Shown: positions 23,201-48,821 of the stretch, in pieces
Layout: every line of letters starts with the position of its first letter
Position numbering within the stretch: the stretch's first letter is position 1
Origin: an uncultured Actinomycetes bacterium
Lineage (GTDB): Bacteria > Actinomycetota > UBA4738 > HRBIN12
Length of the DNA stretch: 64,000 nt
Assembly (NCBI GenBank): GCA_963728665.1
Contig: CAVSLG010000018.1
Location: 43,762-107,761, forward strand
Reading direction: 5' to 3'
The notes under the pieces: model-generated
What the model was told of the DNA's origin: nothing
Databases searched by the model: none
What the model saw: the letters and a program-made list of their open reading frames with translations, nothing else
Program-made: the position numbers and the translations under genes

Positions 23201-23389
23201 CTCACGGAACCTGTCACTTGGATCCCGTGCCGAGCTGGCGCCTTCCTCGCAGCCTGCCTGCGATCAAGTCGGTCAGCTCGCCTAGGTCGAGCGGGATCCG
23301 CCAACGCCAGACGATGGTCGCGTATGCCGCAGTTGCCACGACTAAGAAGACGAGCAACTCGGTAGATCGTTGCCAAACGCCCTGGTGAC

Positions 23390-28249: not shown

Positions 28250-31200
28250 GTGGTGGGATCGAAGCAAGGACGGCGGGTGGTATCGAAGGTTCTCGCGATC
28301 GCGCTCTGCGCCTCGACGGTCGGGATCGCCGGGTTCGGCGAAGCATCGGCGAACTCGTTTCCCCAGGGACTCGTCGTCTCGTCGAATCCCGTGGACAACA
28401 CCCCGTACGTCATGAACGGGTACGTCACGGCGATCACCACCATCGGCCAAAAGGTCTTCGTAGGAGGAACGTTCACGACGGTGCGGAACGCTGCGAACCC
28501 GACCAACCTCACGCGCAACTACATCTTCGCCTACGACAGGAACACCGGCGTGATCGACACGTCGTTCGCACCCGCCCTCAACGGAGTCGTCGAGGCCCTC
28601 GAGCCGGCAACCGATGGGTCAGGGATCTTCGTCGGTGGATCGTTCTCCACGGTCAATGGAGTCTCGAACTACGGGATCGCGAAACTCGATCCGAATGGCG
28701 GCGCGATGGTTCCTGGCTTCTCCGCCCGTACGGCAGGCAAGGTTCGCGACCTCGCGGTGCACGGGAACTCGGTGTATCTCGGCGGCGATATCTGGGCCGT
28801 GAACGGTTTTCAGCGACGCCGACTCGCCGCCATCAATGCCACGACCGGTGCGGTACTACAGAACTTCACGGTGGGCACGACGGCGCCCCGTATCTCGACC
28901 GACTGGGTGGCCGAGCTCGACGTGAGCCCTGACGGCTCCGAGATGGTCATCATCGGCAACTTCTTGGAGGTGAACGGGCTTCCACGGAAACAGATCGCCC
29001 GAATCGACCTCACCGGTCAGCAGGCAACCGTGATGGATTGGTCGACGGAGCAGTACGGTTCGACATGCAATACCGTCTTCTGGACGTACACCCGCGACGT
29101 CGAGTACTCGTTGGACGGCGATTTCTTTGTCGTCGCCACGACGGGTGGGCCTTACACAGGCACGCTGTGCGACACGGCGGCTCGGTGGTCAACGGCTGCA
29201 ACGGGCAGCAACGTCAAGGAGGAGTGGGCGGACTGGTCGGGAGGCGACACCCTGACCGCGGTCGCGATCTCCGATGTGGCGGTGTACATCGGTGGACACC
29301 AGCGCTGGATGAACAATCATCTCGGCCGTGACCAGGCGCAGCCAGGCGCCGTCTCCCGCCCTGGGATCGCTGCCCTCGACATCGAGAACGGTGTGCCGTT
29401 GACATGGAACCCTGGGAGGGACCCAGGGACTGCGGTGTGGGACTTGCATCTGTCCGATCGAGGTCTCTACGTTGGTTCGGATACGGACCTCATCGGCGGC
29501 GAGTACCACCCGAAACTCGCTCAGTTCCCCTTGGGGGGAGGATCAGCCGTTCCTGAGATCGAGCCGGCGACCCTGCCCGCGACGACCTACACCGGCGAGA
29601 CAGGGACCACGCTGACCAAGCGCTCATTCGACGGCTCTAGTTTCGGCACCAGCTCAGTGGTGGGCGGCGCCCCGATCAATTGGGCCGGCGTGAGCGACGC
29701 CTTCTTCGAGTCCGGAAAGCTCTACTACATCGAGGGCGGAGCGTTGAAGTCCAGGACCTTCGATGGCCTGACCTTCGGCCCGGCGTTGGCAGAGCCCTCC
29801 TGGACGACCTGGCCAAGTGTCACGGCGTCGACCTGGAACGGTGGCAAGCTCTACTACGTGGAAAGCACGAATTCATCGTTGAAGTTCCGCTACTTCTCGC
29901 TCGAGAGCGGCATCGTCGGGAGCCAAACGTTCACCATGACCACCGGCATCACGTGGAGCAACATTGCCGCCATGGACTTCTTGGATGGCGATCTCTACTA
30001 CGCCAAGACCGACGGGAACCTGTGGGCGGTCGAGGTCAATCAGGCGGGCGTACCGGTCAACGGGACGCAGCGCGTCGTGAGCGGGCCAGCTGTCGGTGAC
30101 GGCCAGAACTGGAACGACGCTTCGCTGTACTTCGTCAACCACCCCGACACGGTGCCCACCGTGTCCCTCATCGCCCCCGCGAATGGGAGCACGGTCGCCG
30201 GCACGGTGGCGGTCTCGGCCAACGCCTTCGACAGCGAGGGGATCTCCCAGGTCGAGTTCTTCGCGGACGGTACCTCGGTCGGTGTCGACAGCAACGGGGG
30301 CGACGGCTGGGGGATCGGCTGGGATTCGACGACGGCTCCCGACGGCGCGACCGATCTGTCGGCCACCGTCACCGACACCGCGGGGCAGACCGCGTCGGCC
30401 TCGGTGACGATCACGGTCGACAACCTCGGTCCCTCCGTGAGCCTGACCGCTCCCGCCGCCGGCGCCACGGTCTCGGGGCCTTTCGTCAACGTCAGCGCGA
30501 CCGCCGCCGACGCGGTCGGCCTCACCCAGGTCGAGTTCCTCGTCGACGGCATCTCGATCGGCGTGGACACGAACGGTGGCAATGGGTGGTCGGCCACATG
30601 GGACACGACGTCCCATGCAGGGGGTCCCGCCACGGTGACGGCCACCGCGACCGACACCGCGAACAAGACCGCGACCGATTCGGTCTCGGTCACGGTGGAC
30701 AACTCGTCTCCGGGCACAGTGGCGATGGTTGTGGCCAATCCCAGCTCCTTGATCGCCGGTGAGACCGCGGTGCGCAACCGGCTCACGAACGCTGGATTCT
30801 CGGTCACGCTGATCGACGACAACGTCGTGACGGCCGCCGATGCCAACGGCACAGCGTTCGTGTTCGTCTCCTCGACAGTCGGCAACGTCGTGGGGGCGAA
30901 GCTGCGGAACGTGCCCCAGCCAGTCTGGATGGCCAAGCCGTATCTGCTCGACGACATGCTGATGACCGGTCCCGTGGCCGACGTCGACTACGGCAGTGTC
31001 TCGTCGGCCTCGATCGTGATCACCAACGCTGCCCACCCGCTGGCGGCAGGGCAGAGCGGCACCGTCGCGATCACGACCTCGAGTCATGGGAAGTCCTTCG
31101 GGCTCCCGGGTGCTGCGGCCGATGTGGTGGCGACCGCGAGCGGCAAGCCCACGACCTTCGTCTACCAGGCCGGTGACCAGCTCGTCGGCGGGAGCACTGC

Positions 31201-31318
31201 CGACGGCTGTCGCCTGACGTCGTCGGTCTTCCAGAACGGACCTGCGAGCTTCACCGCCGCCGGCTGGACGATGTTCGATGCCGCTGCTGACTACGCCGCG
31301 GCGAACTGCCAGGCCTAG
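28250..31318 (+). CDS. Secreted delta-60-repeat beta-propeller protein with a second repeat domain, an Ig-like pair and a C-terminal CTM. Intact 1022 aa.
   Basis: Signal peptide VLAIALCASTVGIAGFGEASA. About 60-aa repeats carrying G(G)xF(S/T)xVNG (VFVGGTFTTV, IFVGGSFSTVNG, VYLGGDIWAVNG, VIIGNFLEVNG). A GKLYY-repeat region. Ig-like domains (PTVSLIAPANGSTVAGTVAVSANAFDSEGISQVEFF... and SVSLTAPAAGATVSGPFVNVSATAADAVGLTQVEF...). Then CTM (TVAMVVANPSSLIAGETAVRNRLTNAGFSVTLIDDN...GCRLTSSVFQNGPASFTAAGWTMFDAAADYAAANCQA). Confidence 0.8.
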   Translation: MVGSKQGRRVVSKVLAIALCASTVGIAGFGEASANSFPQGLVVSSNPVDNTPYVMNGYVTAITTIGQKVFVGGTFTTVRNAANPTNLTRNYIFAYDRNTGVIDTSFAPALNGVVEALEPATDGSGIFVGGSFSTVNGVSNYGIAKLDPNGGAMVPGFSARTAGKVRDLAVHGNSVYLGGDIWAVNGFQRRRLAAINATTGAVLQNFTVGTTAPRISTDWVAELDVSPDGSEMVIIGNFLEVNGLPRKQIARIDLTGQQATVMDWSTEQYGSTCNTVFWTYTRDVEYSLDGDFFVVATTGGPYTGTLCDTAARWSTAATGSNVKEEWADWSGGDTLTAVAISDVAVYIGGHQRWMNNHLGRDQAQPGAVSRPGIAALDIENGVPLTWNPGRDPGTAVWDLHLSDRGLYVGSDTDLIGGEYHPKLAQFPLGGGSAVPEIEPATLPATTYTGETGTTLTKRSFDGSSFGTSSVVGGAPINWAGVSDAFFESGKLYYIEGGALKSRTFDGLTFGPALAEPSWTTWPSVTASTWNGGKLYYVESTNSSLKFRYFSLESGIVGSQTFTMTTGITWSNIAAMDFLDGDLYYAKTDGNLWAVEVNQAGVPVNGTQRVVSGPAVGDGQNWNDASLYFVNHPDTVPTVSLIAPANGSTVAGTVAVSANAFDSEGISQVEFFADGTSVGVDSNGGDGWGIGWDSTTAPDGATDLSATVTDTAGQTASASVTITVDNLGPSVSLTAPAAGATVSGPFVNVSATAADAVGLTQVEFLVDGISIGVDTNGGNGWSATWDTTSHAGGPATVTATATDTANKTATDSVSVTVDNSSPGTVAMVVANPSSLIAGETAVRNRLTNAGFSVTLIDDNVVTAADANGTAFVFVSSTVGNVVGAKLRNVPQPVWMAKPYLLDDMLMTGPVADVDYGSVSSASIVITNAAHPLAAGQSGTVAITTSSHGKSFGLPGAAADVVATASGKPTTFVYQAGDQLVGGSTADGCRLTSSVFQNGPASFTAAGWTMFDAAADYAAANCQA

Positions 31319-31325
31319 GGGCAGG

Positions 31326-32015
31326 ATGTCGCGAGGAGCTCACCCAGGGCGATCTGCGCGGTGGATCGCTCGAGCGCCTTGGTCGACCCCCTGGTTCCTC
31401 TTTGTGCTTGCCGTGATGATGGCGTGCTCGGCCGACAGCGGCGAGCCGTTGGCGTCTGGGCAGGGTGCGGACACAACGCCCGCCGGTGGTGTGGGTGCAA
31501 CCGGCCCACCGTCACAGCCGACAGGGTCGCCCGGCCCGGATCGTGCACTGGGAGATCTGGAGGGCGAATCGACCGAAGCTGCCGCCACACGGAAAGATCC
31601 CGTTCCGAGTGGGGAGATCGCGCGGTTCCCTGGACTCTGGGACATTCGGGTCGATGAGGTCGATGTCGACGCGACCGACGAGGTCCTGGCGTTCGCCGAT
31701 ATCAATCCGAAACCTGAGCTTGGGTACCAGTACGTCCTGGTCACGATCGAGGGGGTCTATCGCGGCGACTCGATCGCTCAGCCCGTGTTCGAGTGGGGCC
31801 TCATCGACAGGCGGAACCGGGAGTACCAGCCATGGGTCCCGGGATGTGGAGTGATACCGAACTCCATCTACGACATCGTCGAGATCGAAGCAGGGGAGCG
31901 CTTTTCGGCGAACGTGTGCATGCCCGTCAAGGCCAGGAGCGTTCGTCGGGGCCTTGACCTCCATCTCAAGGTCGTAGGGGGCGACAAGTTGTTCTTCGAC
32001 CTAGACAGGTCCTAG
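31326..32015 (+). CDS. Hypothetical lipoprotein (DUF4352-like)
   Basis: Signal peptide with lipobox-like ...FLFVLAVMMAC|SADSG. A low-complexity linker and a small beta-rich domain (YQYVLVTIEGVY..). Overlaps the stop of the upstream gene. Confidence 0.45.
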   Translation: MSRGAHPGRSARWIARAPWSTPWFLFVLAVMMACSADSGEPLASGQGADTTPAGGVGATGPPSQPTGSPGPDRALGDLEGESTEAAATRKDPVPSGEIARFPGLWDIRVDEVDVDATDEVLAFADINPKPELGYQYVLVTIEGVYRGDSIAQPVFEWGLIDRRNREYQPWVPGCGVIPNSIYDIVEIEAGERFSANVCMPVKARSVRRGLDLHLKVVGGDKLFFDLDRS

Positions 32016-34210
32016 GCTCCACAGCCCGAGGCGGCGTATCTCGTGGCAGCATCGAACATGGCCCAGGCGTCGGGCGTAAAGCTGACGGGGGCGTTCCGGA
32101 ATACGGACATCGCGAGCCGGCATCCAGCCGCGCCCTCACCCCCCACCATCTCAGCACCGGGTTGGTAGACGAAGGTTGTTGGCGCTCCCACGGACGTTGC
32201 GATCACGATTGCGGACGGGCGAGGCGCGCCGAACGACTTCACCTTGTTGGACGGTGTCACGAGCACAGAGCCACTGAGCCCCGCGGCCAGCGGATGTGAA
32301 TCTCGGGCGATGACGACGGACTCTGATGAGTTCGTCCCGTAGTCGACGTTGGCCGTGCGGCCAGTCATCTTCATGTCATCGAGTAGCCATGGTTTGCTGA
32401 CCCAGACGGGCTGCTGCACATAGCGGAGGGTCGATCCAAGGACGTTCGAATCCACCGTCGACGTGACGAGGACGAAAGCGGCGCCGTTCGTATCGGATGC
32501 CTCCACCGTATCGTCGTCGAAGAAGTTCACAGCGAACCCATCGCTCGTGAGCCGGTCTCGGATCGAGATCTCCCCCATGAGCAGAGAGCCCGGGCTTCCG
32601 ACCACCATCATCACGGCAGGAGGGGTCATCGGATCTGCCACCATTAGGCCGACCGAAGCCTGCGATTCCCTGCCCGCAGTGTCGGTTACCGTCGCCTCAA
32701 CGAGGACTGTGCCGGCAGCGTGGGTCGTCGTATCCCATGGGATCGACCACCCGTCATGGGGATCGCTGTCGATGCCGATCGATGTTCCGTCGACGGTGAA
32801 CTCGACTCCTTCAAGACCTACGTCGTCGATAGCCGTCGCCGTCAGGTTCACGATGCCGGAGACAACGGCGCCTTCTGTCGGGGCGGTGAGGGAGATGGAT
32901 GGGCCAAGATTGTCAACCAGCACCCCGACGCCGGTGGAACTGGTCTGACCTACCGAATCGGTCACTTCGGCCCACACGTTCGCGACGCCATCAGGCACGG
33001 TCGACGAGTCCCAGTCCAGGCGCCAGCCGTCTCGTCCATCCGGGTCGACACCGACCGACGCGCCACCCGCGAAGAACTCGACCTGAGCCACGCCCTCTGA
33101 GTCCAGAGCGTCCGCCTCGAGAGCCACAACGCCCATCACTGTGCTGTCGGCTTGAGGTGACGTGAGTGCGATGGTGGGTCCCGCGTCTTGCGGGCTCGTC
33201 GCCCCCTCAGGATGCAGGTACGCATCGGCCCCCATCTGCGCGTAGCCGGCCATCGATGAGGATGAGCTGTCGGTGATCCAGGGCCTGCCGTCCTTGATCT
33301 CGTCGAAGTAGATCAGTCCCTTGAGCTCGGGCCAGGTCTTGGCGGTCGCGAGCGCGTCGATGATCCACTGGCCCTTGCGACCGGGGACCGCCGGATCTTC
33401 CTGCGCTCCCCACTCCACCGCCATCCAGGGCTTGGCGTGTCGAACGGCGAAGTCCTGGGTCGGTTGGAAGACGGTCTGGAAGGAGTTCCACGTGGATCCG
33501 GGCTTCGTGGGGTAGAAGTTGTAGCCGTCGCTGCCGATCAGGTCGACGTGGGCGTCGCCCGGGTAGTAGTCCTCGATCGGCTTGCCTGAGCGAGGATCGA
33601 ACGTCCAGGCCATCATCGTCCAGACGAACGCGACGTTATCCACGCCCTGTGCGCGGAAGACGTCGACCACGTGCCGGAACGCGGCGGCGTACTCGGCGGG
33701 GGTGCCCCAGGTCGCGAGGTCGTCCTCGGGCTCGTGATGCAGAGAGAGGTAGACGGGCACCCCGAACGCCTCGATCGCATCCGCCCTCGCGATGATCGCC
33801 GCGTCTTCGGCCCCAGAGGCGATCCTGGACCACGTGATCGCCTGACCGTTCTGGCGCTGCGCCTTCCAGTTCAAGAACGGGATCCGCCCCTGGCCCACCG
33901 TCCAGGCCTCGTGGGCCCCGGGGAAGTTCGAGTCCCACTTGTAGTACTGATGGTCGATCGCGAACCGACGCCCGATCTGGGACTCCACCCGCACGATCGC
34001 ATCGGCGCGAGACTCACCGGCACGGGGAGCGACCCAGCTCCCGAAGTAGGCGCCGGAGGAGGGGATGAGCACGGCGGGCGGACCCGAGACGGCGGCATCG
34101 GCCAACGGCAGGGTGGCGAGGATCGACGAAACCATCGTGGCAGCCGCCACAGCTATCGAGACCGCACGACTGCGCTTGCCCTCCGCGACGGATCCGCCCT
34201 TCGATCTCAC
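32012..34210 (-). CDS. Secreted GH26-like glycoside hydrolase (cassette copy B) fused to an Ig-like pair and CTM
   Basis: Catalytic domain AVLIPSSGAYFGSWVAPRAGESRADAIVRVESQIGRRFAIDHQYYKW...VYLSLHHEPEDD...PWMAVEWG...ADAYLHPEG. Then two Ig-like domains (PTIALTSPQADSTVMGVVALEADALDSEGVAQVEFF... and SISLTAPTEGAVVSGIVNLTATAIDDVGLEGVEF...). Then CTM (VMMVVGSPGSLLMGEISIRDRLTSDGFAVNFFDDD...GCRLAMSVFRNAPVSFTPDAWAMFDAATRYAASGCGA). The start is uncertain (34135-34420). Confidence 0.75.
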   Translation of the reverse strand: MRSKGGSVAEGKRSRAVSIAVAAATMVSSILATLPLADAAVSGPPAVLIPSSGAYFGSWVAPRAGESRADAIVRVESQIGRRFAIDHQYYKWDSNFPGAHEAWTVGQGRIPFLNWKAQRQNGQAITWSRIASGAEDAAIIARADAIEAFGVPVYLSLHHEPEDDLATWGTPAEYAAAFRHVVDVFRAQGVDNVAFVWTMMAWTFDPRSGKPIEDYYPGDAHVDLIGSDGYNFYPTKPGSTWNSFQTVFQPTQDFAVRHAKPWMAVEWGAQEDPAVPGRKGQWIIDALATAKTWPELKGLIYFDEIKDGRPWITDSSSSSMAGYAQMGADAYLHPEGATSPQDAGPTIALTSPQADSTVMGVVALEADALDSEGVAQVEFFAGGASVGVDPDGRDGWRLDWDSSTVPDGVANVWAEVTDSVGQTSSTGVGVLVDNLGPSISLTAPTEGAVVSGIVNLTATAIDDVGLEGVEFTVDGTSIGIDSDPHDGWSIPWDTTTHAAGTVLVEATVTDTAGRESQASVGLMVADPMTPPAVMMVVGSPGSLLMGEISIRDRLTSDGFAVNFFDDDTVEASDTNGAAFVLVTSTVDSNVLGSTLRYVQQPVWVSKPWLLDDMKMTGRTANVDYGTNSSESVVIARDSHPLAAGLSGSVLVTPSNKVKSFGAPRPSAIVIATSVGAPTTFVYQPGAEMVGGEGAAGCRLAMSVFRNAPVSFTPDAWAMFDAATRYAASGCGA
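33230..34060. repeat. About 0.83 kb dispersed DNA repeat (copy B) encoding the GH26-like catalytic cassette
   Basis: The spurious overlapping ORFs 33636..33938, 44381..44683 and 47062..47364 are identical to each other. So are 33321..33515, 44066..44260 and 46747..46941. This shows nucleotide-level identity with offsets of +10745 and +13426. Confidence 0.8.
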
Positions 34211-34581
34211 GCCACATCCCCCCACCAGCGCCTCGACGCTCCTGATCCTGTGTTCCTCGCCGATGAGCGAGGTGTCAGGTATCCATCGGTAGGTCGCACC
34301 GTCGGACTTGAGGGCAATCGTCGGCGTCCACATCGGCAATTTCGCCGACCCGACGGGGCGCGGGCGAGCTGTTGAGCCAGCTGTGCCAGGGGAACCGGAT
34401 CGACAAGGCGTGTGACCCAACGAGAAACCTCGCGAAATACCTAGTCCATCGGCCGTAGCTAGGTGAGGGGGGTCTGTGATACGTTCTGCCTACACCCGTT
34501 GTATCCATTGGCATCGTGTTGGTCGAGGAGGGGCGATGAGATCGTCGCAGCATCTCGACCCCACAGAGGAAGGTTGATCGC

Positions 34582-37500
34582 ATGCATCGTTCCCCCGCCG
34601 CTACCCGTCGATCGGTGAGCCTCGCGTTGACGGTCGCCGTGGTCGCGGCCCTGGTCGCGAGCGTTCCCCCGGCAGCCGCCAACGTGGCGCAGGATGCCAT
34701 CGTGAGTGCGAACCCGGCGAACTGGACCCCGAACGTGCTCGACGGCGAAATCTATTCATTCGTCGAGATCGGGAACAAGATTTACGCGGCCGGGCAGTTT
34801 ACGCAGGTGCAAGCCGCCACCGGCGGAACGATCTACTCCCGTAAGAACCTTTTCGCCTTCAATGCGACGACGGGAGCTATCGACACGAACTTCGCCCCGA
34901 CGTTCGACAACGTCGTCAAGTCTCTCGCGGTCGCTCCCGACGGCAACCTGTTCGCCGGCGGGTACTTCAACTCCGTCAACGGTGATACGACCGTCAGGAA
35001 GCTCGTCAAGCTCAACCCCGCCACCGGCCAGCGGATCACCGCCTTCAGTGCGAACGCGAACGGCCAGGTCTGGGAAATCAGGGTCTGGGGTACGCGTCTC
35101 CTCGTGGGGGGTCGCTTCACGTCCATCAAGAACGTAGCCCGCGATCGGCTCGCCGCACTCGACACCACCACGGGTGCCGTCGATCCCAACCTGAACTTCA
35201 CGATCACCGACCCCCACACCTCGGACTCGGTTCCGTGGGTCTATGCCATGGACGTGAGTCCTGACGGTTCCAAGCTCGTCGTGATCGGTAACTTCATGAA
35301 GATCAACGGGGAGTCGCGTCCTCAGGTCGGCGTGATCGACCTCTCCACCACGCCCGCGACTCTCGCCGACTGGCAGACCGACCGCTATGAACCGCTGTGC
35401 TTCGACTGGGCATTCGACACCTACATGCGCGACGTCGAGTTCTCACCGGACGGCTCGTACTTCGTGATCGCATCGACCGGCGGCGGGGTGACCGGGACCC
35501 TGTGCGATACGGTCGCACGCTGGAACAGCGATGCGACGGGATCCGGATTGGAGCCGGCGTGGGTCGACGTGGCTGGCGGAGACACCCTCTGGGGCCTTGC
35601 GATCACCGGAACCGCCGTCTACGTCGGCGGTCACCAGCGCTGGCTGAACAACTACTACGGTGTCGACTTCGCAGGTCCGGGCGCGGTCGTGCGATCGGGG
35701 ATAGCTGCCCTCGACCCGACGAATGGGGTGCCCTTCTCCTGGAACCCGGGAAGAAGTCGTGGAACAGCGGTCTTCGACATGTTCGCTACGGACGAAGGGC
35801 TGTGGGTGGGGAGCGACACAGACCAGATCGGTGGTGAGACCCATCGGAAGATCGCATTCTTCCCGCTCGCGGGTGGCACGACGCCGCCTTCCAACGACCC
35901 CTACACGCTGCCGGGCGACCTCTATAACGTTTCCGTATCAACATGCCAGGGGGGGACCCCTCGGTCCTTTTCCGGGTGAACACCGGAGGCCCAGGGGTCG
36001 GATCGTCGGACTGCGGGCCCGACTGGGCGGCCGATGACTCCGACGGTGCGCCTGGCGCGGCCTTCCGCAATACCGGGAGCAGCTTCGTGAGCTCATGGGG
36101 TCAGCAGTTCAGCGTGGACAGCACCGTGCCTGCCAGCACGCCGAGTACGATCTTCGACAGCGAGCGGTGGGATCCGGGCGACGCGGCCGAGATGCAGTGG
36201 AGCTTCCCCGTGGACTCCGGCACGAACCTGAGGGTCCGCCTGTACTTCATCAACCAGTACGGGGGCACCTCGGGCGTCGGCCAACGGGTCTTCGACGTCG
36301 CGATCGATGGCACGACCGTGCTCGATGACTACGACATCGTCGCCGACGTCGGAGATCGGGTCGGCACGATGAAAGCCTACGACATCACGAGCGACGGCAC
36401 CGTCAACGTCGACTTCGGGCACGTGACCGAGAACCCGCTGATCAATGGCATCGAGATCATCGACAGGGACGCCACCCCTGTCCTGCCTGGGGAGATCGAC
36501 TTCCTCGGGCGTCGGCAGTTCGACGGCTCGACCCTCGGGGCCACTACGAACCTCAGCACTCCGGGCACCGACTGGAGTTCTACGCGAGGCGCCTTCGCGT
36601 TGCAGGGCAAGCTCTATACCGGTTCCACCGACGGCAACTTCTACGTGCGGTCGTTCGACGGTTCCTCAGTCGGACAGCCCCAGCAGATCAATCTCAACGG
36701 GTTGACGGACTTCCCGATGCAGTCGCTCACGGGCATGTTCTTCGCGAACGGCGGCATCTACTACACGGTCCAGGGCGACCCGCAGATGCACTACCGGTAT
36801 TTCACGCCCGAGAGTGGGATCGTGGGTTCGTACCGCTTCTCGCCCTCCGGCAGTTTCGACTTTAGTGACGTTCGCGGAATGACCCTAGCGAACGAGGAGA
36901 TCTTCTTCTCGCGGACGGACGGGAACCTCTACTCGATGGAGTTCTCGAACGGTTCGCCGGTCCCGGGGACGGAGCAGCTCGTGAGCCCGGCGACCGATGG
37001 TTACGACTGGGCATCGCGCGGGCTGTTCGTTTTTGAATCCGTCGTCGACGGGGACCCGACCGTCGACCTGACGTCGCCGAACGATGGCGCCACCGTCAGT
37101 GGCATCGTGAACATGACCGCGACTGCCTCCGACGCCGAGGGCCTCACCCAGGTCGAGTTCATGGTCGACGGCACCTCGATCGGTGTCGACACGAACGGTG
37201 GGAACGGGTGGTCGGTCCAGTGGAATACGACGACGCACCCGGATGGTGCCGCGACGGTGGTCGCCACCGCGACCGACACCGCCAACAAGACGGCGACCGA
37301 TCAGGTGTCGGTGACGGTCGACAACTCGTCCCCGGGCACCGTGCTGATGGTCGTGGCCGACCCGAACTCCCTGCTCGCCGGTGAGACCGCGGTGCGCAAC
37401 CGACTCACGAACGACGGCTACACGGTCTCCTTGATCGACGACAACGTCGTCGCGGCCGCCGATGCCAACGGCGCCGCGTTCGTCTTCATCTCCTCGACCG

Positions 37501-37949
37501 TGAACGCCAACGTCGTGGGGACGAAGCTGCGTGACGTGCCCCAACCCGTCTGGACGGCCAAGCCCTATCTGCTCGACGACATGCGGATGACCGGCACGGT
37601 GGCCGACGTCGACTACGGCTCGGTCACATCGGCCTCGATCGTGATCACCAATGCCGCACACCCGCTGGCGGGTGGACAGAACGGGACCGTGGCGATCACG
37701 ACCTCGAACCACGGGAAGTCCTTCGGGATCCCCGGCGCGGGCGCAGAGACGGTCGCCACGGCCGCCGGCAAGGTGACGACCTTCGTCTACCAGGCCGGTG
37801 ACCAGCTCGTCGGTGGCACCACCGCACCGGGCTGTCGGCTGACCTCGTCGGCGTTCCAGAACGGGCCGGCGAACTTCACCGCCGCCGGATGGACGATGTT
37901 CGAGGCTGCCGCCGACTACTTGGCGGCGAACTGTGAAGCTGGCCCGTAA
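34582..37949 (+). CDS. Secreted delta-60-repeat beta-propeller protein with a malectin-like (CBM57) domain, repeat domain, Ig-like domain and CTM. One frameshift near 35950.
   Basis: SD gaggaagg plus ATG. Signal VSLALTVAVVAALVASVPPAAA. The propeller is paralogous to 28250..31318 (IYAAGQFTQV, LFAGGYFNSVNG, LLVGGRFTSIKN, VVIGNFMKINGE). Malectin-like block VLFRVNTGGP...AAEMQWSFPVDSGTNLRVRLYFINQY...GQRVFDVAIDGTTVLDDYDIVADVG...NPLINGIEII. Ig-like domain (PTVDLTSPNDGATVSGIVNMTATASDAEGLTQVEF...). CTM (TVLMVVADPNSLLAGETAVRNRLTNDGYTVSLIDDN...ANCEAGP). Confidence 0.75.
37050..37945. repeat. About 0.9 kb DNA repeat encoding Ig-like + CTM. It is nearly identical to 41075..41950, and its CTM part is nearly identical to 40440..41040.
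   Basis: Long identical antisense ORF segments (36885..38018 vs 40225..41733; 37001..37288 vs 41046..41309). Confidence 0.75.
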
Positions 37950-38170
37950 ATTCAAGGGGATCGGACGACGATGGTGGGGCCTGAAGCGTAGCTTCCCCCC
38001 ATCGTCGTCTGCCCTCATCAGCTGCAGTGGTGTTGATCAGGACTGGAAGACGCCGCTCGCCTCTAGAAGAGGTTGCAGTGAAGTCACACTCTCGAGCGTG
38101 CATTCACTCAGCACGTAGGCGTCTTGTTCGACTTACGTCGGTCGTGCTAGGGTCCTTGCGGGAGGGAAGG

Positions 38171-41100
38171 ATGCGATTTCGCACAATAGCTCAATACCGG
38201 CCACGAGGTCAGGCGTTTCGCAACCGCACCGCCCCCTTCCTTTTCGTTGCGCTTCTCTCTCTGGCTTTGGTAGCAGTCGGGTTGATCCCTGTCGCCGAGG
38301 CACAAGTCATCCTCCCCGATGAATACTCTGCGGCCACCATCGTGGTGGGTCTCAGCGACGGTAGGGATATCGTGGCGGCACCCGATGGGCGAATGTTTGT
38401 CGCTCTGGGTACCGGCCAGATTCGTGTGATTCAGAACGACGCGCTCTTGTCTCAGCCGTTGCTGGCCATCCCGGTCGGCAGCGGTGGGAACAAGGGGCTT
38501 CACACGCTCGCCCTTGACTCGGCGTTCTCGCAGAACGGGTACCTGTACGCCGTCTACACACCCATGGGGACTGACTTCAATCGGCTGTCACGGTTCACGG
38601 TCGTGGGCAACACGGCCAACCTGAATTCGGAGTTCAGGATCATGGACCTTCCGCCCCTGGAGGGTGCGCCTTCTCACTACGGCGGTGCTGTCGTCGACCT
38701 GGGGGACGGCACGCTCCTCGTGACAGTGGGGGATCACGAGAGAGCATCGAACGGACAGAACCTCAACGTATTAACCGGCAAGGCGCTACGCATCAACAAG
38801 GACGGGACGATTCCTCCCGACAACCCCTATGTGGGCAGTTCAACCATCGACCATAGGATCTACGCGCACGGTTTCCGAAACCCATGGCAAGCGGCGCTCC
38901 AGCGGAGCACCGGCCGAGTCGTCATCAGTGATGTTGGCTCGTCCCTGTGGGAGGAAGTCAACGTCCTCGCTTCCGGCGCGGACTACGGGTGGGCGGACGT
39001 TGAAGGCCCGGGAGGCCCCGGGACAGAGCCGTTGTTCGCCTACCCGCATTTCGGGCTGATCCCGGGCGCTCCATTCGAGGGATGTGCGGTGACCGGAGGG
39101 ACGTTTTACGAGCCTGATGTGGTGCAGCTACCGAGCCGATTCGTTGGGCGCCTCTTTGTGGGCGACCTCTGCAGTGGGTGGATCGCGTCTGTTGATCCAG
39201 AGACCGGCGAGGCGGAGGCTTTCGCCTCCGGATTCGATTCCCTCGCTGATCTCGCGACGAACCCAACCAATGGGGCCTTGTATGCCCTCGATCGCAACCT
39301 TGTGGACAACCGGAGCGGCATCATCAAGATCGAGTACATCGGTGGAAACGCCACGCTGCGCATCACCTCTCAACCGACCTCCCAACGGCTCGCCATCGGC
39401 CAGCGGGCATCCTTCTTCGTGGGTGCTGTTGGACAGGGCGATCTCCATTATCAGTGGCAGCGCGATGGAGTCGACATCCCAGGTGCCAACTCACCAACAT
39501 ATGTCGTTGATCCGGTGGCCCAGCCGATGACGGTGCCCAGTTCCGGGCGGTCGTGTCAGACGACGTCGGCCAAGTGACGAGTTCTGTGGCGGAGATCATC
39601 GTCACGGACAACCATGCTCCCCAGCCTTTCATCACTAAACCACCGGTAGGCAAGACCTACGGGGGAGGGGAGCAGATCACGCTCGTCGGCGGAGCGAACG
39701 ACGAAGAGGACGGTGTACTCAGCGAGACGGCCCTGACTTGGGAGGTTCGCCTAAGTCACGACGGGCATGACCATGGATTCACAGGAGAGATCGTTGGCAC
39801 TGGACAGTTCACCATCACGATTCCCCGCAGCGGAGAGACATCAGACGATGTCTGGTACACGGTCTACCTGACCGCCGAAGACGCCGATGGGGCGTCTACC
39901 ACGGTGGTGAGGACCATACAGCCGCGAAAGGTATCCATCCAGTTCAACACCTCACCATCTGGGGGTGTCCTCAATATCGATGGCCCGTCTCAAGCCACCC
40001 CGCATCAGGTGGTCGGTGTAGAAGGTGTCTTCCGGGAGCTGCGGGCGCCGAGGGTGCAGGAGTTCGGCGGGGAGCCTCACGGGTTCGTGCGATGGAGTGA
40101 CAATGGCTCAAGGGAGCACACGTTCGTTACCCCGGCCATCAATGCGTCACTGACGGCCCAGTATTCACCTTTGCCATTCGGTCAAGGCGCGACTCCCACG
40201 TGCTTCGTGGCACCTATGGACGATTCAGCCGTTGTCACCTTCTCCGGCAGCCTTGGCAGCTCCGTCAATCTTCGCCGCGATGGTCGTTGGATACAGACCG
40301 TGACGGGTTTCGAATACTACGTTGATGGCGATTCTCCTCTGCCGAACGCCGCATACTCGATCCGTGTTCGGGCGAATGGAGTGACGACCGACTATCCATG
40401 CTCCGGAGTTCAGTGGCCACCCGAAGGCGAACCACCTCCACCGTCCGGTACCGTGCTGATGGTCGTGGCCGACCCGAACTCCCTGCTCGCCGGTGAGACC
40501 GCGGTGCGCAACCGACTCACGAACGACGGCTACACGGTCTCCTTGATCGACGACAACGTCGTCGCGGCCGCCGATGCCAACGGCGCCGCGTTCGTCTTCA
40601 TCTCCTCGACCGTGAACGCCAACGTCGTGGGGACGAAGCTGCGCGACGTGCCCCAACCCGTCTGGACGGCCAAGCCCTATCTGCTCGACGACATGCGGAT
40701 GACCGGCACGGTGGCCGACGTCGACTACGGCTCGGTCACATCGGCCTCGATCGTGATCACCAATGCCGCACACCCGCTGGCGGGTGGACAGAACGGGACC
40801 GTGGCGATCACGACCTCGAACCACGTGAAGTCCTTCGGGATCCCCGGCGCGGGCGCAGAGACGGTCGCCACGGCCGCCGGCAAGGTGACGACCTTCGTCT
40901 ACCAGGCCGGTGACCAGCTCGTCGGTGGCACCACCGCACCGGGCTGTCGGCTGACCTCGTCGGCCAACCAGAACGGGCCGGCGAACTTCACCGCCGCCGG
41001 CTGGACGATGTTCGAGGCTGCCGCCGACTACGCGGCGGCGAACTGTCAGACCGGGCCACCTCCACCGGACGAAAACCCGACCGTCGACCTGACGTCGCCG

Positions 41101-41958
41101 AACGATGGCGCCACCGTCAGTGGCATCGTGAACATGACCGCGACTGCCTCCGACGCCGAGGGCCTCACCCAGGTCGAGTTCATGGTCGACGGCACCTCGA
41201 TCGGTGTCGACACGAACGGTGGGAACGGGTGGTCGGTCCAGTGGAATACGACGACGCACCCGGATGGTGCCGCGACGGTGGTCGCCACCGCGACCGACAC
41301 CGCCAACAAGACGGCGACCGATCAGGTGTCGGTGACGGTCGACAACTCGTCCCCGGGCACCGTGCTGATGGTCGTGGCCGACCCGAACTCCCTGCTCGCC
41401 GGTGAGACCGCGGTGCGCAACCGACTCACGAACGACGGCTACACGGTCTCCTTGATCGACGACAACGTCGTCGCGGCCGCCGATGCCAACGGCGCCGCGT
41501 TCGTCTTCATCTCCTCGACCGTGAACGCCAACGTCGTGGGGACGAAGCTGCGTGACGTGCCCCAACCCGTCTGGACGGCCAAGCCCTATCTGCTCGACGA
41601 CATGCGGATGACCGGCACGGTGGCCGACGTCGACTACGGCTCGGTCACATCGGCCTCGATCGTGATCACCAATGCCGCACACCCGCTGGCGGGTGGACAG
41701 AACGGGACCGTGGCGATCACGACCTCGAACCACGGGAAGTCCTTCGGGATCCCCGGCGCGGGCGCAGAGACGGTCGCCACGGCCGCCGGCAAGGTGACGA
41801 CCTTCGTCTACCAGGCCGGTGACCAGCTCGTCGGTGGCACCACCGCACCGGGCTGTCGGCTGACCTCGTCGGCGTTCCAGAACGGGCCGGCGAACTTCAC
41901 CGCCGCCGGATGGACGATGTTCGAGGCTGCCGCCGACTACTTGGCGGCAAGCTGCTAG
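38171..41958 (+). CDS. Secreted PQQ-dependent sugar dehydrogenase-like (soluble glucose/sorbosone dehydrogenase fold) beta-propeller protein with Ig-like domains and two CTM copies. One frameshift near 39560.
   Basis: SD ggagggaagg plus ATG. Signal/TM FLFVALLSLALVAVGLIPVAEA. GSDH-family motifs (LSDGRDIVAAPDGRMFVA, SHYGGAVVDLGDGTLLVTVGDHE, ALRINKDGTIPPDNPY, IYAHGFRNPW, YGWADVEGPGGPG). Ig-like domains. First CTM (40440-41040). Ig-like domain. Second CTM (41340-41955). Confidence 0.75.
41075..41950. repeat. Second copy of the about 0.9 kb Ig-like + CTM DNA repeat (see 37050..37945)
   Basis: Same evidence as copy 1. The offset is 4045 bp. Confidence 0.75.
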
Positions 41959-42026
41959 CGTCGCCAGGTTGGGAAGGCGAGCGCCCGCTCCAAAGTGCTC
42001 GAGTCTATGTTGGTGTCGGAGCCCAT

Positions 42027-43034
42027 CTATCCTCTTAGGTCAAAGAATGGGTCGGACGCCATCGCAGCGAAGGCGTTCGTGGCGGTGTCGGATGAATCTA
42101 CCGGCCAGCTGCAGCCTGGTTTCGCGGGGTTGATGGTCTGGAAGTAGAGCACCATCTTGACGCGGCGAAACGCCCTCTTCTTCAGTTGCCGGCGAGCGTC
42201 CCGGATCCACTCTGCCTTCCGCCCCGGATCGGTGGGGTCCTCTGTGCTGCCCCACTCAGGCAGGACGATCGGCTTCCCTGGGTGGTCCTTCGCCCAGGAA
42301 CGGATCGGGACGATCTTTTCGCGGAAGGTCTGCCAGGGTCGGCCGGACACCGAACAGTCAGCAGAGTTGTAGAGATCGGCACCGATGACATCGACGAAGT
42401 CGTCGCCGGGGTACCAGTAGTTGGCTGCACGCTCGTCTGTCGTCTCGAAGGCCCAGTCGGTCATCGTCCAAGTCCAACTGACGTTCCGGACTTCCTGCTG
42501 ACGGAACACCTGCACGAAGTTGCGCCATGCCGCGACGAAATCGGACGATGAACCCAAGGCGTCGTTGGCTTGTGACTCCGGCTCATGGTTGAAGATGAGG
42601 TAGATGTGCTTATCGAACGCCCGAACGCGCCGGGCCCAATCCATCATCGTCGCGTGAATATCCGAACCTGGTGCGGCATCGGCCACCGAGCGCCACGGCA
42701 CGATGGACCCATCCTGGCGCACTGATTTCACACTCAGAACTATGGTTCGATTCTTGCGCTTGAGCCACTTGACGTGGTCGTTCGGGAACTGACTGTCCCA
42801 CTTCAAGTAGACCCGAGTGGCCCGAAGCCTCTGGCCGATCATGCGCTCGAAGCGACGTTGGGCATCAACGAGGGATCCACCCGCGTTGTCCTGGACGAAG
42901 GCGCCCAGGACTGCTCCTCTCCCCGAGAGCCGATCGTCGGCGCGGGCGGTCGGTCCGAAGGCGGTCACCACGACCGCGATGATTGAAATGAGGGCCAGGG
43001 CGCCTCGGGGCGGGGTCCGGATCTCGTTCTCCAT
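42027..43034 (-). CDS. Secreted GH26-like glycoside hydrolase; divergent standalone paralog
   Basis: Signal peptide GALALISIIAVVVTAFGPTARA. It has the same catalytic signature as the cassette family (IYLIFNHEPESQ ... PIVLPEWGSTEDP) at about 35-40% identity. Confidence 0.65.
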   Translation of the reverse strand: MENEIRTPPRGALALISIIAVVVTAFGPTARADDRLSGRGAVLGAFVQDNAGGSLVDAQRRFERMIGQRLRATRVYLKWDSQFPNDHVKWLKRKNRTIVLSVKSVRQDGSIVPWRSVADAAPGSDIHATMMDWARRVRAFDKHIYLIFNHEPESQANDALGSSSDFVAAWRNFVQVFRQQEVRNVSWTWTMTDWAFETTDERAANYWYPGDDFVDVIGADLYNSADCSVSGRPWQTFREKIVPIRSWAKDHPGKPIVLPEWGSTEDPTDPGRKAEWIRDARRQLKKRAFRRVKMVLYFQTINPAKPGCSWPVDSSDTATNAFAAMASDPFFDLRG

Positions 43035-43182
43035 GAGCCTGCCTCCTCATGGTGGTTGATGGGCTGAAGGGTTGAGGAAACGAAAGAGACCGCCCGAATC
43101 GTCCCCGGACGGCCTCTGGCGTGAGTATGGTCGAAGGTATCAGATGAGGTAGGGGTGTCAACCTTGTCGCTTCCAACCCTCT

Positions 43183-44958
43183 TCAGGGCCCGAGGTAGGA
43201 GTCTCGTGAGACGCCTGGCTCGTCTGTCCAGAAGGTGAAGGAGGACGTGGCCCTGCCGGAGCGGCCGATCTGCACCACATCGACTGCCTGCCCGATCCGC
43301 TGTCCAGAACGAGACCGCACGATCTCGGATGGGACCTGAATGTCCCCGTCAAACACCATCATTTCGATCGTCCCTGAGACGTGATCCGATGACCATTCGA
43401 TACGCAGCCAGCCGCGAGTCCAGATCGGCTCCGAGGTTCTGAGAACCACCTCTCCCTTTCGATCGCGGGCGCGGAGGTCGCCTCCAGGGGTGATCTCGAT
43501 AGAGACGCTTGTCGCGCCCTTGTGTTTGGCCCGAACGAGTTGGAGCGGTTCCTTTGGCGCTCGAGGAAGCCAGACGTAGAAGCGTCCGAACCAACGATCG
43601 CTGACTCCGAAGGAGTGTCCGTATTCGTAGAAGGCATTCTCGCCAGGGCCGGCCTCGTGCTTGGCGGCAAGCCCGGAGTGCGCACGTCTCGAGTCGTAGA
43701 TCAAGCTCGCCCCGCGCTCGGCCTTGACCGAATCAAAGGCTGACCCGCTGGCGCCACCGCTGTTCGCGCGCGTGATGCCTTCCCCTGGCGACCCTCCGTC
43801 GAGTGAGTTGGTGAGGGGGCTAGGGCTAGGGCTAGGGCTAGGGCTAGGGCTAGGGCTAGGGCTAGGGCTAGGGCTAGGGCTAGGGCTAGGGCTAGGGCTA
43901 GGGCTAGGGCTAGGGCTAGGGCTAGGGCTAGGGCTAGGGCTAGGGAATGGCCTTCCACTCAGATGACCATCGGCCCCCATCTGCGCGTAGCCGGCCATCG
44001 ATGAGGATGAGCTGTCGGTGATCCAGGGCCTGCCGTCCTTGATCTCGTCGAAGTAGATCAGTCCCTTGAGCTCGGGCCAGGTCTTGGCGGTCGCGAGCGC
44101 GTCGATGATCCACTGGCCCTTGCGACCGGGGACCGCCGGATCTTCCTGCGCTCCCCACTCCACCGCCATCCAGGGCTTGGCGTGTCGAACGGCGAAGTCC
44201 TGGGTCGGTTGGAAGACGGTCTGGAAGGAGTTCCACGTGGATCCGGGCTTCGTGGGGTAGAAGTTGTAGCCGTCGCTGCCGATCAGGTCGACGTGGGCGT
44301 CGCCCGGGTAGTAGTCCTCGATCGGCTTGCCTGAGCGAGGATCGAACGTCCAGGCCATCATCGTCCAGACGAACGCGACGTTATCCACGCCCTGTGCGCG
44401 GAAGACGTCGACCACGTGCCGGAACGCGGCGGCGTACTCGGCGGGGGTGCCCCAGGTCGCGAGGTCGTCCTCGGGCTCGTGATGCAGAGAGAGGTAGACG
44501 GGCACCCCGAACGCCTCGATCGCATCCGCCCTCGCGATGATCGCCGCGTCTTCGGCCCCAGAGGCGATCCTGGACCACGTGATCGCCTGACCGTTCTGGC
44601 GCTGCGCCTTCCAGTTCAAGAACGGGATCCGCCCCTGGCCCACCGTCCAGGCCTCGTGGGCCCCGGGGAAGTTCGAGTCCCACTTGTAGTACTGATGGTC
44701 GATCGCGAACCGACGCCCGATCTGGGACTCCACCCGCACGATCGCGTCGGCGCGAGACTCACCGGCACGGGGAGCGACCCAGCTCCCGAAGTAGGCGCCG
44801 GACGAGGGGATGAGGACGGCGGGAGGACCGACGGGAGCGGCGCTCACCGCCGTCGGGGCGACCAGGCCCGAGGCGAGCGCCATGCACGAGAGTAGCGCGA
44901 CGACGGTCTTCCCCAGCGAACCTGCAGAGAGCCGTGGAATGGACGAGGGGGTTGCCAT
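43183..44958 (-). CDS. Secreted GH26-like glycoside hydrolase (cassette copy C), then a (Pro-Ser)21 linker and a C-terminal beta-sandwich (lectin/ConA-like?) domain
   Basis: Signal peptide TVVALLSCMALASGLVAPTAVSA. The catalytic domain is identical to copies B and D. A PSPSPS... run precedes a 190-aa C-terminal domain (WFGRFYVWLP...WLRIEWSSDHVSGTIEMMVFDGD...). Confidence 0.7.
   Translation of the reverse strand: MATPSSIPRLSAGSLGKTVVALLSCMALASGLVAPTAVSAAPVGPPAVLIPSSGAYFGSWVAPRAGESRADAIVRVESQIGRRFAIDHQYYKWDSNFPGAHEAWTVGQGRIPFLNWKAQRQNGQAITWSRIASGAEDAAIIARADAIEAFGVPVYLSLHHEPEDDLATWGTPAEYAAAFRHVVDVFRAQGVDNVAFVWTMMAWTFDPRSGKPIEDYYPGDAHVDLIGSDGYNFYPTKPGSTWNSFQTVFQPTQDFAVRHAKPWMAVEWGAQEDPAVPGRKGQWIIDALATAKTWPELKGLIYFDEIKDGRPWITDSSSSSMAGYAQMGADGHLSGRPFPSPSPSPSPSPSPSPSPSPSPSPSPSPSPSPSPSPSPSPSPSPLTNSLDGGSPGEGITRANSGGASGSAFDSVKAERGASLIYDSRRAHSGLAAKHEAGPGENAFYEYGHSFGVSDRWFGRFYVWLPRAPKEPLQLVRAKHKGATSVSIEITPGGDLRARDRKGEVVLRTSEPIWTRGWLRIEWSSDHVSGTIEMMVFDGDIQVPSEIVRSRSGQRIGQAVDVVQIGRSGRATSSFTFWTDEPGVSRDSYLGP
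43817..43942. repeat. Perfect hexanucleotide microsatellite (GGGCTA)21, which is (TAGCCC)21 on the coding strand. It encodes the (Pro-Ser)21 linker.
   Basis: Read directly from the sequence: 126 bp of uninterrupted GGGCTA units. Confidence 0.95.
43975..44805. repeat. About 0.83 kb GH26-like cassette DNA repeat, copy C
   Basis: See copy B. Confidence 0.8.
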
Positions 44959-45234
44959 GCGGAGTGCCTCCCTCGCCTGCCTGGCGGGGACGGGACAACC
45001 TCGCATCCCCCTGAGTCAGGCAGACGAACCAGTCGGGGTATGAATCGGCGTGCGGGCTGGGGATGCTTGAGTGGGGCGATAGGGCGCTCTTTGGACCCCC
45101 CATCCAGGGGACAGACATGAGCGAGATGAGGCTGGACGATGTCTGGCAGGGACGCACGGTAGGACGTTTCCACGTGTGAGACGGAGAGAAGACGACGTCG
45201 CCTACCGATTTCCGCGAAGGACGGCACTACTGTT

Positions 45235-45558
45235 TTGGAGATGACCGGACCTGTTTCGCCGCCCCATGACGACGGGCTGGCATCACGCGCGTACCTGGTG
45301 CGTGATGCAGTAGTGACGTCGAAGAGACTGTCGGAGCGTGATCGGAAGGCGGCAGTTGCGGCCTTGGCCGAGATCGTCTCTCAAGCGCGACGGGCCGAAG
45401 GATACGAGGAGGCCTTGCGGGCGATCGCGGGTCAGCAGCTTGACGCCGAACCTGGCTACGGGGCCACGATGTCCGGCGTCAAGGCGTTCGCGAGGGACGT
45501 GCTTGCATCGACGTCAAGGCGATGGGCGGCGCGGCCCAGGGTTGCCGCCAACGAGTAA
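45235..45558 (+). CDS. Hypothetical small protein (low confidence)
   Basis: 107-aa ORF with plausible helical composition, in the intergenic space between cassette copies C and D. No recognizable motif. Confidence 0.2.
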   Translation: MEMTGPVSPPHDDGLASRAYLVRDAVVTSKRLSERDRKAAVAALAEIVSQARRAEGYEEALRAIAGQQLDAEPGYGATMSGVKAFARDVLASTSRRWAARPRVAANE

Positions 45559-45710
45559 CGCGAGGCGGATCGGCTTCTCGGCGCTAGGGGCCGAACCGAC
45601 CGACGAATGGCAACTCCAGTGATCTTGCCGCGCCCTACATTCCTCCGCGCATCGATGAGCTGCGCGATCTGGGTCGAGCGCCGTCCTTCATCATGACGAG
45701 ATGGACGTCC

Positions 45711-48109: not shown

Positions 48110-48565
48110 TCAGACGAACGGCTTCTCCTGGCCCCCGAGACCCATGCCCACGAGCAACCCGGCGCCCAGCCCGCCGTTCACGACCGCGAGCGTCCAGAAC
48201 GGCCACGCGTCGGCACCCTCGGGTACCCCGAAGACCGCGTTGATCGCGAAGACGGTTGCGGTGCCGACCTCGAGCACGGCGAACGCCCACGACCACCACC
48301 AGAGCTCGTCGATCTTCTGGGCGACGAGCACCATCAACAGCGCCAGCACGACTCCCATCACTGCGGCAGCCCGGACCCACACGTAGTCGGCGAGCACGGG
48401 CTGGCCGAAGAGGCCTTCCAGCACCCAGCGGGGGAACAGCCCGACCGCCACGCTCCACACGAGCCACAGCGCGGCCTGCACCTTCAGCAACCGTCGCAGA
48501 AGCTTCACGAGCGTCGTCCTTTCCCGGGTGGGCCGGGTTTCGAGCGGTTGGTAGGATACGCGCAC
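48110..48565 (-). CDS. Hypothetical small integral membrane protein
   Basis: 151-aa ORF with 3-4 hydrophobic helices (ALWLVWSVAVGLF, AAAVMGVVLALLMVLVA, WSWAFAVLEVGTATVFAINAVFG, WTLAVVNGGLGAGLLVGMGL). Confidence 0.45.
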   Translation of the reverse strand: MRVSYQPLETRPTRERTTLVKLLRRLLKVQAALWLVWSVAVGLFPRWVLEGLFGQPVLADYVWVRAAAVMGVVLALLMVLVAQKIDELWWWSWAFAVLEVGTATVFAINAVFGVPEGADAWPFWTLAVVNGGLGAGLLVGMGLGGQEKPFV

Positions 48566-48630: not shown

Positions 48631-48821
48631 ACGCAGCATGCAACGAGCGCTCAAGTACCGAAGGGGTAGCGCATGATCGATGCGCTCAAGTACCGAAGGG
48701 GTAGCGCATGAACGACGCGCTCAAGTACCGAAGGGGTAGCGCATGATCGACGCGCTCAAGTACCGAAGGGGTAGCGCATGAACGACGCGCTCAAGTACCG
48801 AAGGGGTAGCGCATGATCGAT
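48631..48821 (+). repeat. Tandem 35-bp repeat (about 5.5 copies) reiterating the Shine-Dalgarno, ATG and first codons of the downstream gene
   Basis: Unit GCGCTCAAGTACCGAAGGGGTAGCGCATGA(T/A)CGA(T/C). Copies start at 48647, 48682, 48717, 48752 and 48787. The last copy supplies the real ATG at 48813. Each earlier ATG opens a 12-codon mini-ORF M(I/N)DALKYRRGSA whose TGA overlaps the next ATG (ATGA). Confidence 0.9.

Follow-up and report, generated by a model that had tools for sequence, protein, structure and literature searches.

Why do two neighbouring, otherwise unrelated bacterial genes end in almost the same DNA, and what would keep these ends alike? The question was raised by a stretch of 64,000 nt from an uncultured Actinomycetes bacterium (assembly GCA_963728665.1, contig CAVSLG010000018.1, positions 43,762 to 107,761; hereafter the window), in which two genes close with a module made of an immunoglobulin-like (Ig-like) Big_7 domain and a domain of roughly 200 residues, referred to here as CTM. 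An earlier note on this DNA had described near-identical Ig-like+CTM DNA within and between the two genes, an internal second CTM that gives the second gene a CTM-Ig-CTM tandem, and a phytase gene with two more diverged CTM copies, and had read the pattern as ongoing concerted evolution or gene conversion. Self-comparison of the window by blastn, followed by a base-by-base check of the copies, upheld the descriptions, and the gene ends given there, 37949 and 41958, were correct. The copies are real and recent, and in our judgment it is probable that non-allelic homologous recombination among the members of an accessory-module family made them. The process is a familiar one, module-level concerted evolution; the domain family is undescribed. 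The genes and copies on which the argument turns are as follows.

34582 to 37949, + strand: gene 1, encoding a beta-propeller (DUF5122-type), malectin, a second propeller-like region, Big_7 and CTM copy A (Pfam); present as two open reading frames (ORFs), 34582-35979 and 35943-37949.
38027 to 41958, + strand: gene 2, encoding a pyrroloquinoline quinone (PQQ)-type sugar dehydrogenase (GSDH; Pfam, E 1.2e-44), an Ig-like region, CTM copy B, a linker, Big_7 and CTM copy C; present as two ORFs, 38027-39577 and 39553-41958.
37054 to 37334, + strand: Big_7 of copy A (PF17957, E 1.4e-16), the 5' part of an identical 874-nt tract, with 0 mismatches to 41075-41355.
37335 to 37934, + strand: CTM copy A, the same as copy C up to 37927.
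40447 to 41046, + strand: CTM copy B, internal, with 9 differences from copy A in 600 sites.
41075 to 41355, + strand: Big_7 between copies B and C, matching the gene 1 Big_7 without a difference.
41356 to 41954, + strand: CTM copy C, terminal, forming with B a CTM-Big_7-CTM tandem with a period of 909 nt; the same protein occurs in a second assembly (P0239).

The blastn self-comparison aligned 37054-37933 with 41075-41954 at 99.77% identity over 880 nt without a gap. Base by base, 37054-37927 (A) and 41075-41948 (C) showed 0 mismatches in 874 nt, synonymous sites included, and an identical run of this length was reached in 0 of 2000 column shuffles. The first mismatches, at 37928 and 37930, lay two codons ahead of the terminal Cys, while the 5' edge of the tract coincided with the first Big_7 residues (PTVDL), preceded by an unrelated linker; the sequences beyond the two stop codons were also unrelated, leaving flanks without resemblance on both sides. 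Copy B was 98.5% identical to copy A over 600 nt (37335-37934 against 40447-41046) and 98.2% identical to copy C (40447-41045 against 41356-41954), and of the sites separating it from A, four were synonymous and the remainder led to G591V, F638N and L660A. All three copies were on the + strand and thus direct repeats, with 909 nt from the start of B to the start of C, the length of CTM, linker and Big_7 together. The Big_7 assignment was secure in both genes, at 61 bits against a gathering cut-off of 24.1. Other functional paralogs of the module in the window genome differed at 17-35% of nucleotides, the closest to A, B and C being the CTM at 30713-31313 (about 83% identity).

A second strain allowed the most recent change to be placed in time. 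Exact look-ups with proteins of the window returned nothing, and a look-up by cluster placed near-identical proteins on contig_114078 of sample ERZ25039536. Locus L010, 16.4 kb of that contig, matched window 30010-46390 at 99.30% identity, with 83 mismatches and 31 gap positions. Copy C was identical in both strains, and 8 of the 9 B-specific bases were common to the two. Copy A of L010 differed from copy A of the window at 37113 (G) and 37889 (C), where its bases were those of the outgroup paralog at 30.4-31.3 kb; the derived bases at these two positions were common to copy C of both strains and to copy A of the window. In the simplest history, copy C would have gained two changes and then overwritten copy A across at least 777 nt (37113-37889) in the lineage of the window once the two strains had separated, so that the latest event there would be the copying of the terminal Big_7+CTM of the GSDH gene onto the module of the malectin gene. 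Such a C-to-A conversion would have taken place later than the 0.5% divergence of the two strains. A further site, 37532, had been a candidate for a swap of paralog variants and was dropped, being a private mutation of copy B of the window with T in all five other copies.

Related loci showed the same tendency on a longer time scale. Pfam and CTM scans indicated that six genes of the window share the C-terminal module design, the four besides genes 1 and 2 being these.

11895 to 12498 and 13080 to 13683, + strand: CTM 1 and CTM 2 of a phytase-CTM-Big7-Big7-CTM gene, diverged paralogs about 70% identical to each other.
28250 to 31318, + strand: propeller gene ending in Big7-Big7-CTM, with CTM at 30713 to 31313, about 83% identical to A, B and C.
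32012 to 34420, - strand: GH26-like-Big7-Big7-CTM gene, with CTM at 32015 to 32623, at about 65% identity to A, B and C.
45691 to 47639, - strand: frameshifted GH26-like/Big_7/CTM gene, with CTM at 45723 to 46330 (self-comparison and frame analysis).

A neighbour-joining tree and an identity table were built from 31 CTM nucleotide sequences taken from the window and 8 related loci. The copies grouped by genome and gene, and not by their position in orthologous loci. The two CTMs of the phytase, about 70% alike in the window and in its close relative L005, were 98.8% identical in L007, 98.9% in L009, 96.6% in L006, 93.6% in L001 and 85.3% in L008. The L006 pair was of the type of the first phytase CTM of the window ('phy1'), whereas the pairs of L001, L007 and L009 were nearer to the second ('phy2'), which indicated that the phytase array was homogenised in opposite directions in different lineages. 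Three GSDH CTMs were 96-98% alike within each of L001, L007 and L008, whose GSDH orthologs have the layout CTM-Big7-CTM-Big7-CTM, with three CTMs, against CTM-Big7-CTM, with two, in the window; the L006 phytase has one Big_7 where the others have two. This variation in module number means that the array is old and of variable length. The comparison of orthologous loci for CTM copy number, which the earlier note had proposed, thus revealed variation (two against three in GSDH), and the by-genome clustering, the variation in module number and the two-strain comparison together bear out its view that concerted evolution or gene conversion of the module is ongoing.

The module is not the only homogenised sequence in the window; a GH26-like catalytic domain is a second, with the following copies.

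33215 to 34081, - strand: GH26-like copy X, 99.5% identical to Y and Z.
43968 to 44826, - strand: GH26-like copy Y, whose gene has a (Ser-Pro)n linker and a C-terminal domain of another kind.
46641 to 47507, - strand: GH26-like copy Z (self-comparison).
13921 to 14802, + strand: older GH26-like copy, 90% identical and inverted relative to X, Y and Z, with 87 mismatches spread over 38 synonymous and 33 non-synonymous codons.

Copies X, Y and Z were 99.5-99.8% identical, and the 778 nt of 33223-34000 were without difference in all three genes. The genes themselves have different signal-peptide regions or leaders, and the domain is followed in X by Big7-Big7-CTM, in Y by a (Ser-Pro)n linker and another domain, and in Z by Big7-CTM. 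At site 34079 in copy X the window and L010 differ, and both bases are present among the paralogs.

Two of these genes have peculiarities of their own. The (Ser-Pro)n linker of the Y gene (43183-45006, - strand) is encoded by a perfect (GGGCTA)x21.5 repeat at 43817-43945, within which the two assemblies differ by 1 nt, and it separates the GH26-like domain from a C-terminal domain of about 200 residues that carries no annotation. The Z gene (45691-47639, - strand) carries at least two frameshifts, one near the end of Big_7 and one in the middle of the CTM, and could be a pseudogene or contain further consensus errors; the second assembly is poor around it, as a contig ends there.

In the mechanism that we propose, the exchanged unit would be a Big_7 spacer with its CTM, which is repeated in the pattern (CTM-Ig)n-CTM at the C-terminal ends of several secreted enzymes: a phytase, propeller/malectin proteins, a PQQ sugar dehydrogenase and GH26-like enzymes. 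Gene conversion would overwrite one copy with another for as far as homology lasts; because conversion runs to the limits of homology, the tract would start at the Big_7 boundary and stop just before the stop codon, as is seen between A and C. Unequal crossing-over between direct copies would add or remove CTM-Ig units. If CTM serves for binding or anchoring, homogenisation would keep several enzymes on the same target, possibly the polysaccharide made by neighbouring genes.

Recombination among the three copies would have distinct consequences. Between B and C it would lose or gain 909 bp, which is one CTM-Big7 unit; between A and B it would delete 3,112 bp; and between A and C it would delete 4,021 bp, removing the dehydrogenase gene and leaving the malectin gene intact. 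The earlier note had called the module a hotspot for deletion and inversion. The first half of that claim agrees with the copy-number variation between orthologs, whereas the second finds no support, since A, B and C are direct repeats and recombination among them cannot give inversions. The minus-strand CTM copies share only about 65% identity with these three, and the inverted GH26-like copy (90%) alone could mediate an inversion, inefficiently.

Several observations weigh against repeated recombination as the source of the copies. Clean exchanges of paralog-specific bases between the strains were seen at only two sites (37889 and 34079), which is modest support, and the remaining differences between the strains are private mutations. 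Sliding windows and a longest-run permutation found no significant mosaic tracts in the more diverged paralogs (p 0.05-0.44), and identity ends at the module boundaries, with unrelated flanks. Indel errors in the related loci add about 1-2% noise to the 96-99% identities, although the by-genome grouping is much larger than that noise. The arrangement itself rests on two assemblies, which may come from the same type of long-read pipeline and, if so, could share a systematic artefact; a long-read origin is suggested by the metaFlye-like contig naming of the second assembly and by the homopolymer-type indels in both.

The alternative that survives best is a one-off recent duplication, with a single Big_7+CTM copied and pasted between genes and one tandem duplication within gene 2, so that identity would reflect youth alone and conversion would not be continuing. 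The module-bounded identity and the older paralogs without significant mosaic tracts are both compatible with such a history, and the 1.5% difference of B from A and C fits the simple ageing of a duplicate. However, multi-CTM GSDH arrays were already present in three other genomes, each homogenised within its own genome, and the phytase pairs were homogenised in different directions by lineage. To reconcile the two strains, one or more additional events since their separation are required, and the pattern recurs in the GH26-like domain. We therefore regard a one-off duplication as rather unlikely, and prefer recurrent non-allelic recombination.

An assembly or polishing artefact would attribute the tandem, or the perfect identity, to repeat collapse or mis-polishing in a metagenome. 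The consensus of the window is indeed imperfect, as its 1-nt homopolymer indels indicate. In gene 1, the reading frame switches at a run of seven G at about 35948, where L010 has eight G and an unbroken propeller+malectin gene call; in gene 2, it switches near 39521, where the window has CCCA and L010 has CCCAA, the product P0238 reading through. Because L010 reads through both 1-nt indel sites, the real genes are 34582-37949 and 38027-41958, and the ORF splits are most likely single-base consensus errors of long-read assembly. The downstream ORF of gene 1, ending at 37949, has malectin at its start and no signal peptide, and that of gene 2, ending at 41958, begins in the middle of the Ig-like region. 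An artefact in the arrangement of the copies is unlikely, because a second assembly from another sample has the same gene order, the same copies A, B and C and the same CTM-Big7-CTM tandem, with an identical tandem protein (P0239), all but one of the B-specific variants in common and no difference in copy C. Over 30.0-45.0 kb the two assemblies differ by only 5 indels, and the repeats, at 0.6-0.9 kb, are shorter than typical long reads and set in unique sequence. Near-identical CTM pairs also occur in unrelated proteins from other sources: in four such proteins (P0024, P0055, P0026 and P0098) the pairs are 97-100% identical, with Big_7 or fn3 between them. Taken together, these comparisons leave an artefact with very little probability. 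The last alternative, that purifying or convergent selection on the protein held the copies alike without recombination, has in its favour that the modules presumably have a function and that different phyla share a conserved CTM core, but it is effectively refuted, because selection on a protein does not freeze third codon positions and A and C show no synonymous difference in about 291 codons, against 17-35% of nucleotides among the paralogs.

What is being homogenised belongs to a large family. Searches with hidden Markov models (HMMs), using the window copy and six diverse members, returned no match for CTM in Pfam-A, NCBIfam or the sequences of solved structures. A word-indexed search, which found only 10 frameshifted fragments, had made CTM appear a rare domain, and this was overturned by an exhaustive HMM search of 1.84 billion cluster representatives, with 3,312 matches at E<=1e-3 and 432 at E<=1e-30; the representatives stand for 50%-identity clusters, and 3,312 is a lower bound. 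Arrays were the rule: among the 148 top representatives with a near-full CTM, 135 had at least two such copies, and one protein had as many as nine. Copies were typically about 300 residues apart, which corresponds to one CTM and one Ig-like spacer, the spacers across the family being Big_7, He_PIG, PKD or fn3. The partner domains included GDSL lipases, sulfatases, phosphodiesterases, phytases, GH26-like domains and propellers. The best genome match was an Acidimicrobiia metagenome-assembled genome (L002), and the GSDH relatives were also labelled Acidimicrobiales, while a search of plasmids returned distant, unannotated homologs only.

The position of the domain within proteins was more varied than in the window. 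CTM is internal in gene 2, N-terminal in Bacteroidota (L003 and L004) and free-standing in Cupriavidus metallidurans CH34, where the homolog is a 236-residue protein with a signal peptide (L011). For this reason CTM is not a C-terminal sorting signal, nor is it C-terminal by nature. The Cupriavidus gene lies at L011 3905-4615 on the megaplasmid NC_007974.2 and adjoins a TonB-dependent receptor gene and an OpgG/MdoG-like gene. As a homolog from a cultured organism, it could be a tractable model for the function of the domain.

A structural model of CTM was obtained with AlphaFold2 from 26 diverse sequences, with a predicted local distance difference test score (pLDDT) of 96 and a predicted template modelling score (pTM) of 0.92; the six window copies alone had given pLDDT 37. 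The best matches of the model in the PDB were class-I glutamine-amidotransferase (GATase)-like folds, at template modelling (TM) scores of 0.55-0.66 and Foldseek E values of 1e-5 to 4e-3. The GATase subunit of GMP synthetase, STM1381 (3soz) and STM3548 (2gk3) gave TM scores of 0.63-0.66, and the model also matched the non-catalytic GIFT domain of IFT52 (5fmr) and the OST48/Wbp1 oligosaccharyltransferase subunit (6c26_B), all at sequence identities of about 10%. Among the near-invariant columns of a 27-sequence CTM alignment (A3) there was no Cys, the GATase nucleophile; Cys in that alignment was only clade-specific (PGCRL and the terminal C). The near-invariant positions were V6, V31, P71, H109, G117, G131, P133, A141, F150, G155, A164 and R168. 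From fold and context, CTM is probably a non-catalytic accessory module for binding or anchoring, a role suggested by its position on secreted enzymes, its alternation with Ig-like domains, the absence of any Cys conserved in the family and the presence of polysaccharide-synthesis genes nearby.

Known systems help to place both the process and the domain. Gene conversion between dispersed paralogs is familiar in bacteria from tufA/tufB and from rRNA operons. As in those cases, paralogs within a genome are here more alike than orthologs and the tract is bounded by the extent of homology; unlike in those cases, the unit is a protein module in otherwise unrelated genes and not a whole gene. The predicted fold of CTM resembles that of class I glutamine amidotransferases (alpha/beta, GATase1-like), from which it differs in its identity of about 10%, its lack of a conserved Cys, its extracellular location and its occurrence in arrays. 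Periscope proteins (SasG/Aap G5-E, Rib, SHIRT) consist of tandem arrays of folded domains encoded by near-identical DNA, and intragenic recombination has been proposed for their length variation between close strains (PMC8201768). The CTM-Ig units of the window are likewise 98-100% identical, their orthologs differ in number (two against three) and arrays in the family reach nine. In contrast to Periscope proteins, whose arrays connect an N-terminal adhesin with a wall anchor, the arrays here are short and lie on enzyme C-termini; exchange crosses gene boundaries (gene 1/gene 2), and the unit is a two-domain pair of alpha/beta and Ig folds. Periscope proteins join a ligand-binding head through a rod-like stalk to an anchor in the cell wall or membrane, whereas the window proteins have no LPXTG motif or hydrophobic tail after the last CTM and end 0-4 residues past the last CTM Cys (...AASC*, ...NCEAGP*).

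At the level of the locus, the closest parallel in our comparison is the glucan degradation locus of Caldicellulosiruptor (CelA-CelF), in which multimodular secreted enzymes share CBM3 and catalytic modules, and a sequence of about 1 kb recurs in several genes, attributed to recombination after duplication (PMC7142884). Big_7+CTM is similarly common to unrelated catalytic domains in the window, where one GH26-like domain occurs in genes with different tails. The two loci differ in phylum and in enzymes, and the accessory module of Caldicellulosiruptor is a characterised cellulose-binding CBM3, whereas that of the window is an unannotated domain.

The module-bearing genes of the bacterium, a member of the Acidimicrobiia, sit in a low-GC locus together with polysaccharide-synthesis genes. 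The neighbours are GT2 glycosyltransferases and an epimerase in the window, and sulfotransferases and a Wzx-type flippase in the orthologous loci; with an adenosine 5'-phosphosulfate (APS) kinase nearby, this content suggests that the polysaccharide of the locus is possibly a sulfated surface polysaccharide. A scan for promoters and terminators across 34.3-42.3 kb gave results no better than shuffles.

The locus falls within a segment whose arrangement differs in another sample. Positions 9995-48113 (38,119 bp) are circularly permuted in contig_114078 (38,143 bp; L005 plus L010; ERZ25039536): L005 joins window 48113 straight to 9995, and the ends of the contig abut at window 46390/46392. One breakpoint interrupts a Leu/Phe-dehydrogenase-like gene (9035-10150) that is unbroken in the window, and the other coincides with the stop codon of a minus-strand gene for a small membrane protein. 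The 10-nt sequence ACGAACGGCT occurs at both 9982-9991 and 48114-48123, and GC content is 0.61-0.67 in the segment against 0.68-0.72 in the flanks. Tandem amplification of the 38.1-kb segment could explain this, as could a circular element. No integrase or transposase domain was detected in the ten larger ORFs scanned (14.8-27.9 kb and 42.0-43.0 kb, and two outside the segment at 49.0-53.7 kb). Agreement between the two strains is uneven along the segment: L005 1736-15404 is only 94.7% identical to window 9995-23617, with 220 gap openings, against 99.3% in the 30-46 kb part, which reflects either uneven consensus quality or a truly more divergent glycosyltransferase/sulfotransferase part.

Shortly beyond the segment, the 35-nt unit GCGCTCAAGTACCGAAGGGGTAGCGCATGATCGAC, which contains a short palindrome, is present five times in tandem at 48647-48820, upstream of the APS-kinase gene (48974-50833). 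Toward the other end of the window, a GroEL-like ORF (7372-8817) has C-terminal residues that look out of frame, probably through a single-base indel, and a direct repeat of about 246 nt at 5856-6350, in two adjacent copies 88-95% identical, is unrelated to the CTM modules.

For those who assemble or annotate such genomes, the locus carries a warning, as near-identical modules of 0.6-0.9 kb in different genes invite collapse from short reads, and two genes here were split by single-base indels. For the biology of the family, the window would provide a clean, dated example of module-level concerted evolution, in which strains 0.5% apart already differ by one conversion. Defining the ligand of CTM would annotate thousands of 'hypothetical' regions, and the domain might explain how enzymes that release phosphate, sulfate and glycans are retained at the cell surface in uncultured soil Acidimicrobiia. 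A broader reading, which we offer as speculative but plausible, is that CTM could be a large undescribed extracellular family with a GATase-like fold that targets or anchors many secreted enzymes across several phyla, that its length-variable (CTM-Ig)n arrays, homogenised across genes, could let an enzyme set track one, possibly strain-specific, surface polysaccharide, and that the 38-kb locus may be amplifiable or excisable. If this were true, the enzymes targeted by CTM would include phytases, sulfatases, lipases, phosphodiesterases and GH26-like enzymes.

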